From: Trypanosoma brucei
Taxonomy: Eukaryota
Length of the DNA stretch: 64,000 nucleotides
Direction of reading: 5' to 3'
Assembly: GCA_000002445.1 (NCBI GenBank)
Contig: CP000071.1
Span: 672,001-736,000, forward strand
The notes under the pieces are model-generated. The model had not been told where the DNA came from, made no database searches, and saw only the letters and a program-made list of their open reading frames with translations. The translations under genes were made by a program, and so were the position numbers. How positions within the stretch are numbered: position 1 is the first letter of the stretch; each line of letters starts with the position of its first letter. Positions 14,483 through 24,084 of this stretch are shown here, piece after piece.

Positions 14483-15904
14483 ATGCGGCGGGCTTCGCAT
14501 GTTTGCACGTCGTGTGAACTGCTGGGTTTCCAGAAGCAATTTCTCATGCTCTCCAACCGCGGTAATAGCAGTGGTGATAATGACGTCATCGATACAAGTG
14601 GCGGCAAGTTCCGCAACGGCAATGGGGATGGAAAAGACGACGATGTTGTGACACCATGGAATGTTTCTGCCACCGGAGTGCGGGGTGTCAACTATGATCG
14701 TGTGTTGGTGCGATTTAAGTCCCAACCTATCGGTGAGCCACTGTTAAAAAGGATGCAGGATGTTTGTGTTGAAAGAGTGAAATGCAATAATAGCGAAAGA
14801 GGACACAATGCGGAAAGGAGTGCAGTGGGTGAAGAGGTGCAGCCATTGCATCACTTCTTCAGGCGTGGCATAGCCTTTTCGCACAGAGATTTTGACATCG
14901 CACTGACCAACGTGCAGGAAGCCTTAAGATCGGGAACTCAGGGAGCGTATTTATACACTGGTCGCGGTCCGAGTACGCGGACAATGCATCTTGGACACGT
15001 GATACCCTTTATGCTTACGCGCTACCTGCAGGATGCGCTCGGGCTGCCGCTAGTCATCCAAATCACCGACGATGAGAAGTTTTTTTTTCGCGATGTACCG
15101 TTGCATGACAACCGATGCTCGGACGGAATTGATATTGTAACCGAAAACATAAAGGATATTATTGCATTTGGCTTTGACCCTAAACGGACGTTTATTTTCC
15201 GGAACACCTCCTACATGGGTAGCATGTATCCTACCGTTGTTCGCCTGCAGCGCACAATGACACTCAGTGCCGTGAAGAATACGCTGGGATTGATCGATAA
15301 TGACAATATCGGGAAAGCCTCCTTCGCTGCTACTCAAGCAGCGCCTTGCTTCAGTAGCTCCTTTCCGTGCATCCTTGGAGAACAAGATTTTGAAAAGCCT
15401 CTACAGTGTATTGTGCCATGTGCCATTGATCAGGATCCGTACTTCGTTCTGGCGCGGGCATCGGCATCCCGCATGAAGTATCGAGCTCCCGCACTACTGC
15501 ATACAAAATTCCTTCCAGCTTTGAAGGGGATGAGACTAAAGATGAGTAGTAGTGCCGAGGAGAGCGGTGTGATAACATTGCACGACTCACCGGAGCAAGT
15601 ACAAAAGAAGATGAAGAAGGCTTTCTCCGGCGGTAGTGGGACACTGGACGACATGAAGACGAAAGGCGTGGATTTGGAGGCCGATGTGGCCTACCAATTC
15701 ATTCGGTTTTTCTCTCCGGACGACGAGATGGTTGGGGAGGTATCGGCAAAGTATGTGGTTGGTGAGATGAACAGCTGTTATGTGAAGAGCTTAGCCGCAG
15801 ATGTTGTCGTCCGGCATGTGCTGCGCAACTGGCAAGCGAAGCGAAAGCTGGTGACAGATGAGGAGGTTCGGCGGTTTACGGAGGTGCGCAACATTATGGC
15901 GTAG
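14483..15904 (+). CDS. Tryptophanyl-tRNA synthetase of the eukaryotic/archaeal type. The N-terminal extension suggests an organellar isoform.
   Basis: Collinear with cytosolic TrpRS: YTGRGPSTRTMHLGHVIPFMLTRYLQDALGLPLVIQITDDEKFF (HIGH motif HLGH), IAFGFDPKRTFIF, IGKASFAATQAAPCFSSSFP and LKMSSS (KMSKS motif). The true start may be an internal Met. Confidence 0.9.
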   Translation: MRRASHVCTSCELLGFQKQFLMLSNRGNSSGDNDVIDTSGGKFRNGNGDGKDDDVVTPWNVSATGVRGVNYDRVLVRFKSQPIGEPLLKRMQDVCVERVKCNNSERGHNAERSAVGEEVQPLHHFFRRGIAFSHRDFDIALTNVQEALRSGTQGAYLYTGRGPSTRTMHLGHVIPFMLTRYLQDALGLPLVIQITDDEKFFFRDVPLHDNRCSDGIDIVTENIKDIIAFGFDPKRTFIFRNTSYMGSMYPTVVRLQRTMTLSAVKNTLGLIDNDNIGKASFAATQAAPCFSSSFPCILGEQDFEKPLQCIVPCAIDQDPYFVLARASASRMKYRAPALLHTKFLPALKGMRLKMSSSAEESGVITLHDSPEQVQKKMKKAFSGGSGTLDDMKTKGVDLEADVAYQFIRFFSPDDEMVGEVSAKYVVGEMNSCYVKSLAADVVVRHVLRNWQAKRKLVTDEEVRRFTEVRNIMA

Positions 15905-16145: not shown

Positions 16146-18689
16146 ATGGACGCGCAAGTTGGAGTTGTTCAGCAACCGGTGACCACTAGTTCAACGATTT
16201 GGGTTGGGGAATGTCAATGTCCAAAATGGAAAAAATCTACCCACCGTGCGGTTGAGCAAAACCTGACGACTTCACTAGAATGCGGTGGAGAAAGAGATGC
16301 ACTCCTTGATGTTGCTTGCGGAAGTGGCATTGACATAGATTCTTTCCTTAGAGAGAAGTGGATTCGTGTAGCATTTACTTCTAGTTTCGGAAGTAACAGT
16401 AGGGTCCGCGTGCGGGCGAGAAGGGTGAGGATAGGTAGCCATGAGTTTGTCGTGGTGGAACGGAACGTTTTTGGGTGTGATGACTCGGTATATCGAAAGG
16501 ATAACAAACTTTGGGAGGGTTTGCCCCGTGGGCAGGCCTGCGTATTTGTCGAATCGGGCGACAGGGCTGGGTTTATACCCATAGGTAGACTTCAAGGCCT
16601 GCGGAAGTTCAATTCCTTCGACGGACCATATGGTATTAGGGGAAGGCAACCCGTTAGTGCTGTTGCGATGGAGGCCATCGACGGGGACTGTGGTCATATC
16701 TCTGCGTTCGTGCACACTGGAGAGCGGTATTGGCTTGTTGGGAACAAAGATACTCACCTATTAGTAAGCTTCAGTGTACCAGAGAAAGATATATTCTCCA
16801 ACACCGCCGAAGGTGGTGCCATAACGAATGAGGGGGACAAGCCACTTCAGGGGGCTAACTATTCACCTCCGTCGCTAGCGGTGCGGATAGCAAGGCTCTG
16901 GGGTCAAACGCTTCGAGCACTTCCCGATGAAAAATCATTCGGTTTGCATGAGTTTTTGTCTTCAAACAGGTACACGGCTTGCTTCGACGCTGTGCTACAG
17001 GACTGTGGACACCTTGTCGACTACGGTGAAGATGAACTTCTACAGTTTTACGCTCTGACCCAAAGTGGTGAATCGCTAGCAGAGGGCTTGTGCGTGGATC
17101 CAGTTAGCGCTATAGTAAACCTGCAGTCCTTTGGTCTTCGTGTAGTCCCCTTCCATAGTGAGCAATGCTCATCAGTACCTGAAATTCTGGATCTTGGAAC
17201 GGACGAGTATTCGCAGTACGGGGGCCAGGTTGCGCGTCGTCTGAACTGCAGAGGAGCGGTTATGTACGGCTTGGACGCCCAGGGCATTGTGGTTCGGTTG
17301 TGGAAGTTACCTTCGCACGCATACGTGGTTGAGCGTGCGGCACAGGAGGCCATTGTGACGCATCGCCTGAGCGGTACCGTCTTGCGCGACAAGTTGCGGA
17401 GGAAGTTAGACCGCTTGCCGAAAGAAATACGACGATGTGTCACTGAATGGAGTTCAGCCCGTCTTGAGCCATTGTTGAACCTTGCAGCGTGGTTGCACAT
17501 TATGGGGAAAGTAACACCGGAGGTTGGCCTCGATGGATTGCAGGAGGTCCGTCGCAGTTGGATAACACTTCAACAGCAACTTGTGAAGCACACAAAGGAC
17601 ATGCGTGAGCACTTACAACTGTACGAGCCCCCAGTGGCCGAGGCAGCTATCAATAACCCGGACGTCATCATGTGTGTGGGGCCACAAGGTTGTGGCAAGT
17701 CCACGTTTTGTCGCGCTTTCTGTGTCTTACTCCAGAAGGTAGGTCAGAAGCCTCGTTGGATCAACCAGGACGAAGTGGGTGGTCGAAATGAGTTTATCGA
17801 GGCCATCCGACGTGCCAAGGAATCCGACTGTACACATATTCTTATAGATAAAATGAATCTTGACGATGCGGCACGAAATGCTGACTACGCCTCTTTCAAC
17901 CTAAAAACGATAACCGTCGCTTGGGTACATCCTTGTGATGTAGACGTTATGGTAAGTACGTGCCTAGAAAGAGTATGCCATCGCGGCAATGCACATCGCA
18001 CATTCAGAGGAACCGTCTCCCCGGGGAAAAAGAGGAAAATGATGACAATTATCCGTGGGTGTGTACAGCGATGCGAACCACCAACAACAGGGATTGTTAT
18101 TGAGGCCAATGTCTTGGACCCCCCGGCCATAACCATAGAATCTGTGTGGAAAGGTCTCTGCCGACACACAATGTCTGAACTTCCAGATATTAAAGATCTT
18201 TCCGTTGCCGACGCGTTGGAAATTGCTCGTAGGTACGAATTACTCTTGTCACACTCATCGCGTCCCTTCAATTGCGGCATCATAAAGGTTGTGAATTCAG
18301 AACTTCTTGTCGCCCTTGTGCCTGCAGATTACCTTGAGGGCAAAAAAATGCGCAAGGAACTCGACATCAGCACAATCTATCTTGGTGACAGATCCCATTT
18401 CGATCTTACGCTTCTGTCAGAGTTACAAACGTTGGAAGGTACTTCCATCCAGGTGGCACCTGTCCGTATCGCGTCCGACGCAAAGGCAACAGCAATTGAA
18501 ATTCGTAACAATAACGAATTCCCATGCCAAAATGCACACCCACACATTACCATTGCTACTGCTCCCGGTGTACCAGCGAAGTATAGCAATGAGCTGCTAA
18601 GCAAAGTAAGCACTGAAACAAGCGACATCAAGGTAATGGAGGTGTCACCTGATGTATCCATTTCAGGTGTGTTTCAGTTTGTGCGGTGA
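16146..18689 (+). CDS. P-loop NTPase, polynucleotide kinase-like, with a conserved C-terminal domain that also occurs in the downstream tandem-array proteins. It may be a CNPase-like or tRNA-ligase-like RNA end-processing enzyme.
   Basis: Walker A VIMCVGPQGCGKSTFCRAF at about aa 515. A Walker B-like THILIDKMNLDD follows. The C-terminal 125 aa (LEGKKMRKEL...LEGTSIQV...NNNEFPCQNAHPHITIATAPG...GVFQFVR) align end to end with the 199-aa array proteins. HPHITI is an H-x-T-x motif, as in 2H phosphoesterases. The start is uncertain and may be an internal Met. Confidence 0.65.
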   Translation: MDAQVGVVQQPVTTSSTIWVGECQCPKWKKSTHRAVEQNLTTSLECGGERDALLDVACGSGIDIDSFLREKWIRVAFTSSFGSNSRVRVRARRVRIGSHEFVVVERNVFGCDDSVYRKDNKLWEGLPRGQACVFVESGDRAGFIPIGRLQGLRKFNSFDGPYGIRGRQPVSAVAMEAIDGDCGHISAFVHTGERYWLVGNKDTHLLVSFSVPEKDIFSNTAEGGAITNEGDKPLQGANYSPPSLAVRIARLWGQTLRALPDEKSFGLHEFLSSNRYTACFDAVLQDCGHLVDYGEDELLQFYALTQSGESLAEGLCVDPVSAIVNLQSFGLRVVPFHSEQCSSVPEILDLGTDEYSQYGGQVARRLNCRGAVMYGLDAQGIVVRLWKLPSHAYVVERAAQEAIVTHRLSGTVLRDKLRRKLDRLPKEIRRCVTEWSSARLEPLLNLAAWLHIMGKVTPEVGLDGLQEVRRSWITLQQQLVKHTKDMREHLQLYEPPVAEAAINNPDVIMCVGPQGCGKSTFCRAFCVLLQKVGQKPRWINQDEVGGRNEFIEAIRRAKESDCTHILIDKMNLDDAARNADYASFNLKTITVAWVHPCDVDVMVSTCLERVCHRGNAHRTFRGTVSPGKKRKMMTIIRGCVQRCEPPTTGIVIEANVLDPPAITIESVWKGLCRHTMSELPDIKDLSVADALEIARRYELLLSHSSRPFNCGIIKVVNSELLVALVPADYLEGKKMRKELDISTIYLGDRSHFDLTLLSELQTLEGTSIQVAPVRIASDAKATAIEIRNNNEFPCQNAHPHITIATAPGVPAKYSNELLSKVSTETSDIKVMEVSPDVSISGVFQFVR

Positions 18690-20158: not shown

Positions 20159-20758
20159 ATGGGTTGTGGAGGTTCAGCTCCTGCTAACAAAGACAGGCAT
20201 GTGGGTGCAGATCCACCAAAACCTTCAGAGCATTCGGAACATTCAAAACCTTCAGATCCTTCAGATCCTGCTGATGCTACTCGTATTCACAAAATCTGTA
20301 CACTTCCACTACATGACAAGGATAAGCCAGTTGCTGCTGCAGCAATTAGGGTTACCGACCCCAAGTGTATTTCGGATATTTTACCTCCGGAATTCCTTGA
20401 GGGAAAGAAGGTGCATAATGAATTTTGTGCAATTACTCTCTCCTTCGATGATGGAAAGCCGGAGGATGAAGGCCTTTTTGAGAAGTTGAAGGAATTGGAA
20501 GGTACTTCCATCGAATTGAAACCAACCCATATTGTGATGAATGAAAAAGTCGCCGCCATTGGGGTGTGTAATAATGATGAATTCCCCTGCCAGGACGCAC
20601 ACCCGCATATCCTCGTTGCAACTGCTCCAGATGCCACACAGGAGGATATTGATGATGTAACCAAGAAAGGAAAGATTGAGATATTTTGCGCGAGAAAACT
20701 TCCCGATCTGCCACCTGATATCACCATCCCAGGTGAGTTTCGTTTCATGCACTGGTGA
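20159..20758 (+). CDS. Array copy 1: a 199-aa protein with an N-terminal MGCGGS dual-acylation (myristoyl-Gly2, palmitoyl-Cys3) signal. Its C-terminal domain is homologous to the C-terminus of the 847-aa P-loop protein.
   Basis: The protein starts MGCGGSAPANKDRH. The region EFLEGKKVHNEF...LKELEGTSIELKPTHIV...CNNDEFPCQDAHPHILVATAP...IPGEFRFMHW aligns with 16146-18689 aa 720-847. It is identical to copy 3. Confidence 0.75.
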   Translation: MGCGGSAPANKDRHVGADPPKPSEHSEHSKPSDPSDPADATRIHKICTLPLHDKDKPVAAAAIRVTDPKCISDILPPEFLEGKKVHNEFCAITLSFDDGKPEDEGLFEKLKELEGTSIELKPTHIVMNEKVAAIGVCNNDEFPCQDAHPHILVATAPDATQEDIDDVTKKGKIEIFCARKLPDLPPDITIPGEFRFMHW

Positions 20759-21821: not shown

Positions 21822-22421
21822 ATGGGTTGTGGAGGTTCAGCTCCTGCTAACAAAAACAGGCATGTGGGTGCAGATCCACCAAAACCTTCAGAGCATTCGG
21901 AACATTCAAAACCTTCAGATCCTTCAGATCCTGCTGATGCTACTCGTATTCACAAAATCTGTACACTTCCACTACATGACAAGGATAAGCCAGTTGCTGC
22001 TGCAGCAATTAGGGTTACCGACCCCAAGTGTATTTCGGATATTTTACCTCCGGAATTCCTTGAGGGAAAGAAGGTGCATAATGAATTTTGTGCAATTACT
22101 CTCTCCTTCGATGATGGAAAGCCGGAGGATGAAGGCCTTTTTGAGAAGTTGAAGGAATTGGAAGGTACTTCCATCGAATTGAAACCAACCCATATTGTGA
22201 TGAATGAAAAAGTCGCCGCCATTGGGGTGTGTAACAATGATGAATTCCCCTGCCAGGACGCACACCCGCATATCCTCGTTGCAACTGCTCCAGATGCCAC
22301 ACAGGAGGATATTGATGATGTAACCAAGAAAGGAAAGATTAAGATATTTTGCGCGAGAAAACTTCCCGATCTGCCACCTGATATCACTATCCCAGGTGAG
22401 TTTCGTTTCATGCACTGGTGA
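21822..22421 (+). CDS. Array copy 2: a 199-aa MGCGGS protein. It differs from copies 1 and 3 by D11N and E176K.
   Basis: Same unit, offset by 1663 bp. The substitutions are ANKNRH versus ANKDRH and GKIKIF versus GKIEIF. There is also a synonymous aac/aat change and one spacer SNP. Confidence 0.75.
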   Translation: MGCGGSAPANKNRHVGADPPKPSEHSEHSKPSDPSDPADATRIHKICTLPLHDKDKPVAAAAIRVTDPKCISDILPPEFLEGKKVHNEFCAITLSFDDGKPEDEGLFEKLKELEGTSIELKPTHIVMNEKVAAIGVCNNDEFPCQDAHPHILVATAPDATQEDIDDVTKKGKIKIFCARKLPDLPPDITIPGEFRFMHW

Positions 22422-23484: not shown

Positions 23485-24084
23485 ATGGGTTGTGGAGGTT
23501 CAGCTCCTGCTAACAAAGACAGGCATGTGGGTGCAGATCCACCAAAACCTTCAGAGCATTCGGAACATTCAAAACCTTCAGATCCTTCAGATCCTGCTGA
23601 TGCTACTCGTATTCACAAAATCTGTACACTTCCACTACATGACAAGGATAAGCCAGTTGCTGCTGCAGCAATTAGGGTTACCGACCCCAAGTGTATTTCG
23701 GATATTTTACCTCCGGAATTCCTTGAGGGAAAGAAGGTGCATAATGAATTTTGTGCAATTACTCTCTCCTTCGATGATGGAAAGCCGGAGGATGAAGGCC
23801 TTTTTGAGAAGTTGAAGGAATTGGAAGGTACTTCCATCGAATTGAAACCAACCCATATTGTGATGAATGAAAAAGTCGCCGCCATTGGGGTGTGTAATAA
23901 TGATGAATTCCCCTGCCAGGACGCACACCCGCATATCCTCGTTGCAACTGCTCCAGATGCCACACAGGAGGATATTGATGATGTAACCAAGAAAGGAAAG
24001 ATTGAGATATTTTGCGCGAGAAAACTTCCCGATCTGCCACCTGATATCACCATCCCAGGTGAGTTTCGTTTCATGCACTGGTGA
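23485..24084 (+). CDS. Array copy 3: a 199-aa MGCGGS protein, identical to copy 1.
   Basis: Same unit, offset by 3326 bp from copy 1. Confidence 0.75.
   Translation: MGCGGSAPANKDRHVGADPPKPSEHSEHSKPSDPSDPADATRIHKICTLPLHDKDKPVAAAAIRVTDPKCISDILPPEFLEGKKVHNEFCAITLSFDDGKPEDEGLFEKLKELEGTSIELKPTHIVMNEKVAAIGVCNNDEFPCQDAHPHILVATAPDATQEDIDDVTKKGKIEIFCARKLPDLPPDITIPGEFRFMHW

Follow-up and report, generated by a model that had tools for sequence, protein, structure and literature searches.

A divergent paralogue of the tRNA ligase Trl1 in Trypanosoma brucei, a likely RNA 5'-kinase with a degenerate ligase site

Introduction

What kind of enzyme is encoded by an 847-amino-acid open reading frame (ORF) on contig CP000071.1 of Trypanosoma brucei, and is it equipped to seal RNA ends, to prepare them for another enzyme, or only to bind them? 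The ORF begins with ATG and lies within the window analysed here, a stretch of 64,000 nucleotides of T. brucei brucei TREU927 DNA (positions 672,001 to 736,000 of the contig, GenBank assembly GCA_000002445.1); its product is filed in the databases as 'hypothetical protein, conserved' (Table 1). A preliminary description, made from the sequence alone, had divided it into an N-terminal region of about 500 residues, a central P-loop kinase-like module and a C-terminal H-x-T domain, and had suggested either a kinase-phosphodiesterase protein without ligase activity or a divergent ligase. Each half of that suggestion holds in part: the protein has a divergent ligase domain with a degenerate site and its kinase site is intact, but the first histidine of its phosphodiesterase has been lost.

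The protein is a divergent paralogue of Trl1, consisting of a ligase adenylyltransferase with its helical subdomain, a polynucleotide 5'-kinase and a 2H cyclic phosphodiesterase (CPD). With the ligase site decayed in Trypanosoma, the first CPD histidine lost in T. brucei and the kinase intact, it is on balance likely that the protein works as an RNA 5'-OH kinase rather than a ligase, with the ligase fold and helical module serving as a scaffold that binds RNA ends. The usual account credits T. brucei, an organism that relies almost entirely on post-transcriptional control, with one Trl1, one RtcB and kinases of the Clp1 type; the gene described here would be a fourth, unstudied player in its RNA end metabolism. 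It would also be a natural case of a tRNA ligase turned pseudoligase with its kinase preserved, useful for understanding how RNA fragments with 5'-OH ends are marked for decay or repair.

Domain architecture and relationship to Trl1

The 847-residue protein is collinear with Trl1, its ligase (LIG) module of adenylyltransferase and helical C-terminal subdomain being followed by the kinase (KIN) and CPD modules. Scanned against Pfam, with matches judged against the curated cut-off of each family, it gave three matches above threshold: DUF7920 at residues 68-400 (375.3 bits against a cut-off of 27, E 3e-112), PF08303 (tRNA_lig_kinase) at residues 508-645 (25.8 bits against 22.7) and PF08302 (tRNA_lig_CPD) at residues 767-842 (35.6 bits against 23). 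The order of the last two bears out the kinase-then-phosphoesterase arrangement that had been likened to Trl1. Names in the databases ('tRNA ligase phosphodiesterase domain-containing protein') already indicate CPD and kinase domains, and one orthologue has been named 'tRNA ligase' by an automatic annotation pipeline.

Homology in the ligase region surfaced only with a structure model and a broad-family profile. PF09511 (RNA_lig_T4_1) gives no match to the T. brucei protein at E values up to 1, and a profile restricted to trypanosomatid N-terminal regions finds no match among the PDB sequences. The broad profile (A3), built from 69 diverse family members, matches the Trl1-LIG-KIN structure 9r3w by sequence alone with an E value of 2.2e-33 in one collinear stretch, in which TacaEa is aligned with TAVAEL (motif III), NsEGaVvy with DVEGFVIR (motif IV) and vyKeK with FFKYK (motif V), and which runs on unbroken through the helical subdomain and the kinase. 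The same profile matches the KIN-CPD structures 6u00 and 6tzm (E 8e-31) with both HxT motifs in register, and the LIG-only structure 9qw7 (E 1.5e-8) over profile positions 18-319. Because the profile matches Trl1 structures by sequence, DUF7920 is the ligase domain of Trl1 in divergent form, and the proteins that carry it make up a divergent branch of tripartite enzymes of the Trl1 type. About a hundred uncharacterised proteins of giant viruses and protists thereby gain a probable function.

Predicted structures were compared with known folds in two parts. The model of the N-terminal region scores 17.8 against the Trl1 ligase domain 6n0t (289 residues aligned), 17.3 against 9r3w, 16.9 against the Candida glabrata Trl1 adenylyltransferase 9qw7, 16.2 against T4 Rnl1 and 15.5 against archaeal Rnl3, with Rnl5, Rnl2, REL1 and DNA ligases scoring lower than the last of these. 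As modelled, the N-terminal 500 residues form an RNA ligase module of the Trl1/Rnl1 type including the helical C-terminal subdomain, in a region that had been left unassigned. The AlphaFold2 (AF2) model of residues 496-847 has a mean predicted local distance difference test (pLDDT) score of 87.2. Searched with Foldseek against the PDB, it matches best the KIN-CPD structure of C. albicans Trl1, 6u05 (E 3.2e-14), over both domains. Next come 9r3w, mammalian PNKP (3zvl), the Mucorales kinases 9drz and 9d8a, and mouse CNPase catalytic domains.

The T. brucei protein shares with the Trl1 enzymes of fungi, plants and trypanosomes (9r3w, 6n0t, 6u05) the modules, their order and folds, the kinase motifs and the second HxT. 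It has the collinear modules and the kinase signature of a Trl1-type enzyme (GCGKST at 515-520, D542 and R609-x3-R613), whereas motif I, motifs III to V and the pair of HxT motifs are not intact. It differs from Trl1 in being encoded by a gene separate from that of TbTrl1, in having a ligase module filed as DUF7920 instead of RNA_lig_T4_1, in lacking the lysine of motif I, the glutamates of motifs III and IV and the second lysine of motif V, and in reading D-I-S at the first HxT.

Table 1. Coordinates of the 847-residue protein, its modules and motifs, the neighbouring genes in the window and viral-type relatives on other contigs
Feature	Residues	Coordinates	Strand	Evidence or residue state
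Complete ORF, 847 aa	1-847	16146..18689	+	100% identical to T. brucei TREU927 XP_847058.1 / Q57XG4
Ligase-like adenylyltransferase domain	68-400	16347..17345	+	Pfam DUF7920 (PF25536); Trl1/T4 Rnl1 fold
Degenerate motif I, EAIDGDCGH	176-184	16671..16697	+	Consensus E-K-E-N-G-E-C-x-H; nucleophile Lys replaced by A177
Motif Ia, GNKDTH	199-204	16740..16757	+	Consensus GSKNVH; K201 retained, S200 replaced by N
Motif III, TACFDAV	277-283	16974..16994	+	Consensus TxxxEAI; Glu replaced by D281; aligned to Trl1 'TAVAELC' (9r3w)
Motif IV, NCRGAVMY	367-374	17244..17267	+	Consensus NSEGAVVY; Glu replaced by R369; aligned to Trl1 'DVEGFVIR'
Motif V, LWKLPS	385-390	17298..17315	+	Consensus YKxKN; second Lys replaced by P389; aligned to Trl1 'FFKYKF'
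All-helical C-terminal subdomain of ligase-like module	401-495	17346..17630	+	AF2 helices; inside continuous 9r3w profile alignment
Polynucleotide-kinase-type P-loop domain	~505-650	17658..18095	+	PF08303; Foldseek 6u05, 9r3w, mammalian PNKP, 9drz
P-loop GPQGCGKST	512-520	17679..17705	+	K518 in 105/105 relatives
NQDE	540-543	17763..17774	+	D542 in 105/105; candidate catalytic Asp
RxxxR lid extended to RVCHRGNAH	609-617	17970..17996	+	Aligned to 'NRVIQRGDNH' of Trl1
2H phosphoesterase (Trl1-CPD / CNPase-like)	~700-847	18243..18686	+	PF08302; AF2 pLDDT 87; Foldseek 6u05, CNPase 2yph
Degenerate first HxT, D740-I-S742	740-742	18363..18371	+	Relatives: H 97/105, T 97/105
Intact second HxT, H800-I-T802	800-802	18543..18551	+	Relatives: H 98/105, T 98/105
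Class I Trp/Tyr-type aminoacyl-tRNA synthetase ORF, immediately upstream		14483-15904	+	Pfam match from residue 157
Three tandem 199-aa genes, stand-alone CPD-like domains		20159-20758, 21822-22421, 23485-24084	+	36% identity to aa 688-846, E 6e-30
Dicer-like ORF, 1661 aa		34822-39807	+	La-HTH, KptA/Tpt1-like, RNase III, Prim-Pol 4 domains
Full-length DUF7920-kinase-CPD gene, giant-virus-type contig L001		7980-10427		
Full-length DUF7920-kinase-CPD gene, giant-virus-type contig L002		7938-10223		
Full-length DUF7920-kinase-CPD gene, giant-virus-type contig L003		7857-10313		

The ligase-like module

The motif I lysine of covalent nucleotidyltransferases is the acceptor of AMP. Lysines in motifs I, Ia and V, glutamates in motifs III and IV and the glycine of motif IV have been described as essential for the activity of TbTrl1 and yeast Trl1 (PMC4931112). 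The preliminary description had found no clear motif I and had proposed a search for motifs I, III, IV and V. A motif scan confirms that K-x-[DN]-G is absent from the entire protein, and all four motifs can be located by alignment, each of them degenerate in T. brucei. How far they depart from the family was gauged by a residue census in 105 full-length relatives aligned with MAFFT, to which the counts given here and in Table 1 refer. The motif I consensus E-K-E-N-G-E (lysine in 96, asparagine in 92 and glycine in all 105) is reduced to EAIDGD; glutamate stands at position 281 in 93 relatives and at position 369 in 96, with the motif IV glycine in all 105; in motif V, K387, which T. brucei retains, is present in 104 and K389 in 97. 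Since catalytic residues of motifs I, III, IV and V have been replaced, the T. brucei protein is most likely unable to adenylylate itself or to seal RNA.

In all six Trypanosoma species the motif I lysine has become alanine, leucine or threonine, motif III carries aspartate, and the second lysine of motif V has been lost, with further differences among the species at position 201 (lysine, asparagine or threonine) and position 369 (arginine, lysine or glutamate). R128, K154, F155, G180, G370, K387 and R397 stay invariant, and because substitutions scatter among the species while such structural residues stay fixed, the dead ligase site appears to be under relaxed constraint. Decay in the Leishmania-type proteins has taken a different form, the motif I lysine having become glutamate and the motif III glutamate valine, methionine or glutamine, with motif V intact.

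The kinase module

The P-loop module that had been described as kinase-like is of the Trl1/PNK (polynucleotide kinase) type, as both PF08303 and the Foldseek match to 6u05 indicate. An unrelated NTPase family, which had been named as an outcome that would overturn this assignment, was sought and rejected: Pfam matches to AAA, ABC, SRP54 and STAND families are all sub-threshold and cover the P-loop only. Both the ORF and the three motifs quoted from it are real, with GPQGCGKST at residues 512-520, ILIDKMNLDD at 565-574 and HPHITI at 798-803, and they are not chance occurrences, because K518, D542, R613 and H617 are invariant in all 105 relatives (R609 in 103). Two details need correction. The distance from Walker A to the hhhhD segment, given as about 60 residues, is 50 from K518 to D568 (56 from G512), and D568, within ILIDKMNLDD, is not the counterpart of the catalytic aspartate of PNK and Trl1 enzymes, which aligns instead with D542 in NQDE. 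This motif is aligned with 'IQNDN' of Trl1 and with 'VNQDD' of the Mucorales kinase 9drz, the best single-sequence match in the PDB (E 4e-4, VNQDD against INQDE).

The motifs GxxGxGKS/T, NQDE and RxxxRGxxH are invariant in all trypanosomatid members, even in those whose ligase and CPD sites have decayed most. To judge from these residues, the kinase is of the Trl1/PNK P-loop type with a fully conserved active site, and the most likely activity of the protein is NTP-dependent phosphorylation of polynucleotide 5'-OH ends, because in every trypanosomatid member purifying selection is obvious at the kinase site alone. The same fold and motifs occur in the stand-alone RNA kinases of Mucorales (9drz, 9d8a), in PNKP and in T4 Pnk, enzymes which show that a kinase of the Trl1 type is able to act without a ligase. 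In contrast to these single-domain kinases and to the kinase-phosphatase PNKP, the T. brucei kinase has a dead ligase fold on one side and a damaged 2H domain on the other.

The phosphodiesterase module

The C-terminal H-x-T domain is indeed a 2H phosphoesterase of the Trl1-CPD/CNPase type, but only one of the two H-x-[TS] motifs, H800-I-T802, is intact in T. brucei. Across the relatives the first motif has the consensus H-[VI]-T; it is retained in T. congolense, T. vivax, T. theileri, T. melophagium and T. cruzi and in the Leishmania-type proteins. Asp740 is found in T. b. equiperdum as well, and in just one sequence other than that of T. brucei among the 105 aligned relatives. Its codon, GAC at 18363-18365, is a single base away from CAC. 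2H enzymes normally need both histidines for catalysis; because both take part, the H740D change should, by analogy, leave the T. brucei protein, specifically, with little or no cyclic phosphodiesterase activity. Vertebrate CNPase likewise has a PNK-like P-loop domain followed by a 2H phosphodiesterase, and its catalytic domain matches by fold with an E value of about 2e-5; it differs in having no ligase-fold domain and in keeping both HxT motifs, and sequence relationship to it is detectable at the superfamily level only.

Relationship to TbTrl1 and proposed function

That the ORF might simply encode the known tRNA ligase had been raised as a further way in which the preliminary assignment could fail. 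TbTrl1 is a separate protein of 870 residues with KLAG, GxGKT at 400-404, RxxxR at 524-528 and HVTV at 739-742 and 802-805 (PMC4931112), and the identification was rejected, the TbTrl1 signatures KLAG, TKH, EGYVV, LKAK and HVTV all being absent from the 847-residue protein. It is to the TbTrl1 gene that the literature assigns the joining of tRNA exons in vivo. None of the TbTrl1 mutants K107A, K403A and H802A complements RNA interference against TbTrl1 (bioRxiv 10.64898/2026.08.16.745097). All three TbTrl1 activities are therefore individually essential, and the paralogue provides no redundant healing for the splicing of tRNA-Tyr; it probably works on other substrates or elsewhere in the cell. 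Work on TbTrl1 as a drug target is also affected, as inhibitors of its kinase or CPD pockets may strike the paralogue too.

The ORF is probably Tb927.8.2250, because the name used in a paper on differentiation granules, 'a tRNA ligase phosphodiesterase' (PMC10998879), matches its UniProt name and the gene order fits, with TrpRS upstream and a Dicer-like gene downstream. Tb927.8.2250 is among the Alba4-proximal proteins of starved cells, as is POMP39-2 (PMC10998879), and this recovery fits a role on RNA fragments associated with cytoplasmic messenger ribonucleoproteins (mRNPs). In the mechanism that we propose, the ligase-fold and helical modules would survive as a platform for binding RNA ends, the kinase would phosphorylate RNA 5'-OH ends at the expense of NTP, and 5'-OH cleavage products so phosphorylated in cytoplasmic mRNP granules would enter 5'-to-3' decay or be passed to another enzyme. 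A decay-licensing role of the kinase is plausible as a speculation by analogy. The literature searched contains no report of a second Trl1-like gene in trypanosomes, of the ligase nature of DUF7920 or of the active-site decay; papers on TbTrl1, Clp1 and Trl1 structures do not mention a second Trl1-like gene, 'DUF7920' is not mentioned at all, and Tb927.8.2250 appears only in PMC10998879 and has no entry in the TrypTag localisation supplements.

Alternative explanations

Several considerations weigh against the interpretation of the protein as an RNA 5'-OH kinase on a ligase-derived scaffold. The N-terminal model is of moderate confidence only (mean pLDDT 70, from nine sequences); catalysis by another residue may be feasible where the canonical lysine is missing; and Asp740 might keep some general-base function, which would leave a degree of CPD activity. 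The substrate of the kinase, be it RNA, DNA or a nucleotide, is assigned from homology only, the association with granules comes from a single proximity-labelling list, and the gene was equated with Tb927.8.2250 through product name and gene order instead of a direct look-up. The most far-reaching alternative is that the protein is a second functional Trl1, an active heal-and-seal ligase whose nucleophile is non-canonical or whose active site has been rearranged. It has the fold and the collinear three-domain order of Trl1, the automatic annotation of one orthologue, and the survival of the pocket residues R128, K154, F155, G180, K201, G370 and K387 in its favour. We nevertheless regard it as highly improbable, given that four near-invariant residues have been replaced together (A177, D281, R369 and P389) by residues that vary among Trypanosoma species, that K-x-[DN]-G occurs nowhere in the protein, and that the endogenous gene does not rescue ligase-dead mutants of TbTrl1.

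Two further alternatives, both unlikely, differ from the favoured reading in how much catalysis they allow. In one, the protein heals ends with two activities, the kinase and a working CPD supplying another ligase with 5'-PO4 and 3'-OH,2'-PO4 ends, as in the amphioxus PNK/CPDase or CNPase model. This would agree with the intact kinase motifs, the confidently predicted 2H fold, the conservation of the second HxT along with P799, Y813, S814 and N815, and the presence of both HxT motifs in all other Trypanosoma and Leishmania-type orthologues; it conflicts with the replacement of the first catalytic histidine by aspartate and of the threonine by serine in T. brucei and T. b. equiperdum, with the rarity of that aspartate among the relatives, with the general requirement of 2H enzymes for both histidines, and with the lethality of the kinase (K403A) and CPD (H802A) mutations of TbTrl1 in the presence of the 847-residue gene. 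In the other, which we consider marginally less probable still, no part of the protein is catalytic: it would be a pseudoenzyme that binds RNA or serves as a scaffolding subunit, and its kinase would merely bind nucleotide. Visible damage to two of the three active sites would suit such a role, and so would the loss of both HxT motifs as well in two relatives, P0027 and P0029, that group with the Trypanosoma clade, yet the invariance of the kinase motifs in all trypanosomatid members is difficult to account for unless catalysis is selected for.

Distribution and evolution of the family

An exhaustive hidden Markov model (HMM) search with the trypanosomatid alignment against 1.84 billion representatives retrieved 1234 proteins at E values below 1e-3, 177 of them below 1e-30. 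The top 150 matches are mostly proteins of 650-1000 residues that align in a single stretch from about profile position 77 to 800 and have the complete architecture in common. Besides other trypanosomatids, giant viruses and metagenomes contribute full-length relatives, and the family consensus keeps all ligase motifs (KENGE, GSKNVH, TxxxE, NSEGAVVY and YKxKN) and both HxT motifs. Ten relatives scanned with Pfam all match DUF7920 and the CPD family; for the kinase region the match is PF08303 or a generic P-loop family. PF09511 (RNA_lig_T4_1) overlaps DUF7920 in two of the ten, P0074 and P0149; in P0074 it scores 35.4 bits against a cut-off of 28.3 and extends from motif Ia to just past motif V. 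Word-indexed protein searches with two alignments (A2 and A3) returned trypanosomatids only, and no relative was found in bacteria or archaea when one genome for each of 185,579 species was searched with two peptide patterns.

Intact copies are those of Angomonas deanei (P0028) and Strigomonas culicis (P0039); the relative P0012 is intact as well. The last of these, a protein of 1183 residues with all catalytic motifs intact, carries an RNA recognition motif (RRM, PF00076) inserted between ligase motifs I and Ia, which is direct evidence of RNA dealings for the family. A. deanei has two paralogues, P0028 with the intact site and P0027 with decayed ligase motifs. P0027 groups with the Trypanosoma clade in a rough neighbour-joining tree, to which long-branch attraction may contribute, and shares with that clade the derived states D at 179, non-E at 281, Q at 400 and non-K at 389. 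This grouping and the shared states tentatively suggest an old trypanosomatid duplication followed by independent decay.

Outside the kinetoplastids, a search with a sub-alignment found three IMG/VR loci with full-length genes (L001-L003, Table 1), on contigs of which one is a GVMAG contig, one is 405 kb long and one adjoins an Rpb2 gene. The L001 gene lies ~3.4 kb from Rpb2, and the Rpb2-bearing contig also holds a gene that matches minor capsid protein P2 of giant viruses below threshold. In the protein of L002 (P0090) the motifs of ligase, kinase and CPD are intact. P0028, P0039 and L001-L003 have the same Pfam family and architecture as the T. brucei protein and 20-35% full-length identity to it; in contrast to that protein, they keep all ligase, kinase and CPD motifs and resemble working heal-and-seal ligases. 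Most other family members are on metagenome contigs. At the level of fold, and for the N-terminal model only, BFVD matches include proteins of Homavirus, Cafeteria roenbergensis virus (771 aa; CroV E3T4N1) and Sylvanvirus, together with a Tupanvirus 'T4 1 superfamily RNA ligase' (797 aa) and a Bodo saltans virus 'tRNA ligase/uridine kinase' (891 aa). The host of Bodo saltans virus is a kinetoplastid, and the appearance of this virus among the matches raises the possibility of gene exchange between virus and host. A wider scenario, tempting but doubtful, would make DUF7920-KIN-CPD a second, hitherto unrecognised lineage of complete heal-and-seal ligases in kinetoplastids and giant viruses, the latter possibly including the Mimiviridae-related viruses that infect heterotrophic flagellates, Bodo saltans virus among them; in trypanosomatids the lineage would have undergone duplication and decay to pseudoligases at least twice. 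The T. brucei product would then have only its kinase left and act in starvation mRNP granules as a 'reader/marker' of broken RNA ends, perhaps in concert with the POMP39 proteins encoded just downstream, which would be acylated, stand-alone CPD-like domains with degenerate catalytic sites.

Genomic neighbourhood

All genes of the window are on the plus strand, the arrangement expected for a trypanosome polycistronic unit. The synthetase ORF immediately upstream has a long N-terminal extension, as its Pfam match begins only at residue 157, and possibly encodes the organellar TrpRS. The Dicer-like ORF, probably TbDCL1, lies 16 kb downstream of the Trl1-like gene and bears a KptA/Tpt1-like domain, a 2'-phosphotransferase fold that takes off the 2'-phosphate left by Trl1-type ligation. 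Gene order in trypanosomes is not generally functional, so the closeness of the two genes is probably a coincidence.

Nearer by, the three tandem genes for CPD-like proteins are near-identical and repeat with a period of 1663 bp. Their products begin with MGCGGS, a likely myristoylation or palmitoylation signal, and have both HxT motifs degenerate (C-A-I and H-I-L). A protein in the same cluster carries the name 'Proteasome maturation protein 39A'; POMP39 is probably meant, which belongs to the mitochondrial outer-membrane proteome. The tandem genes are probably POMP39 and may encode functional partners of the 847-residue protein; joint action with a CPD-like neighbour is possible because Tb927.8.2250 and POMP39-2 are both Alba4-proximal, and a shared-peptide artefact in the Alba4 list seems unlikely given the 36% identity. 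Short CPD-like proteins of the POMP39 kind (178-224 aa; P0073, P0077, P0084, P0085 and P0123) that retain both HxT motifs were also found. P0084 differs hardly at all from the C-terminus of P0002, the full-length protein of T. congolense; this suggests a recent duplication or gene conversion, unless some of the short proteins are fragmentary gene models.

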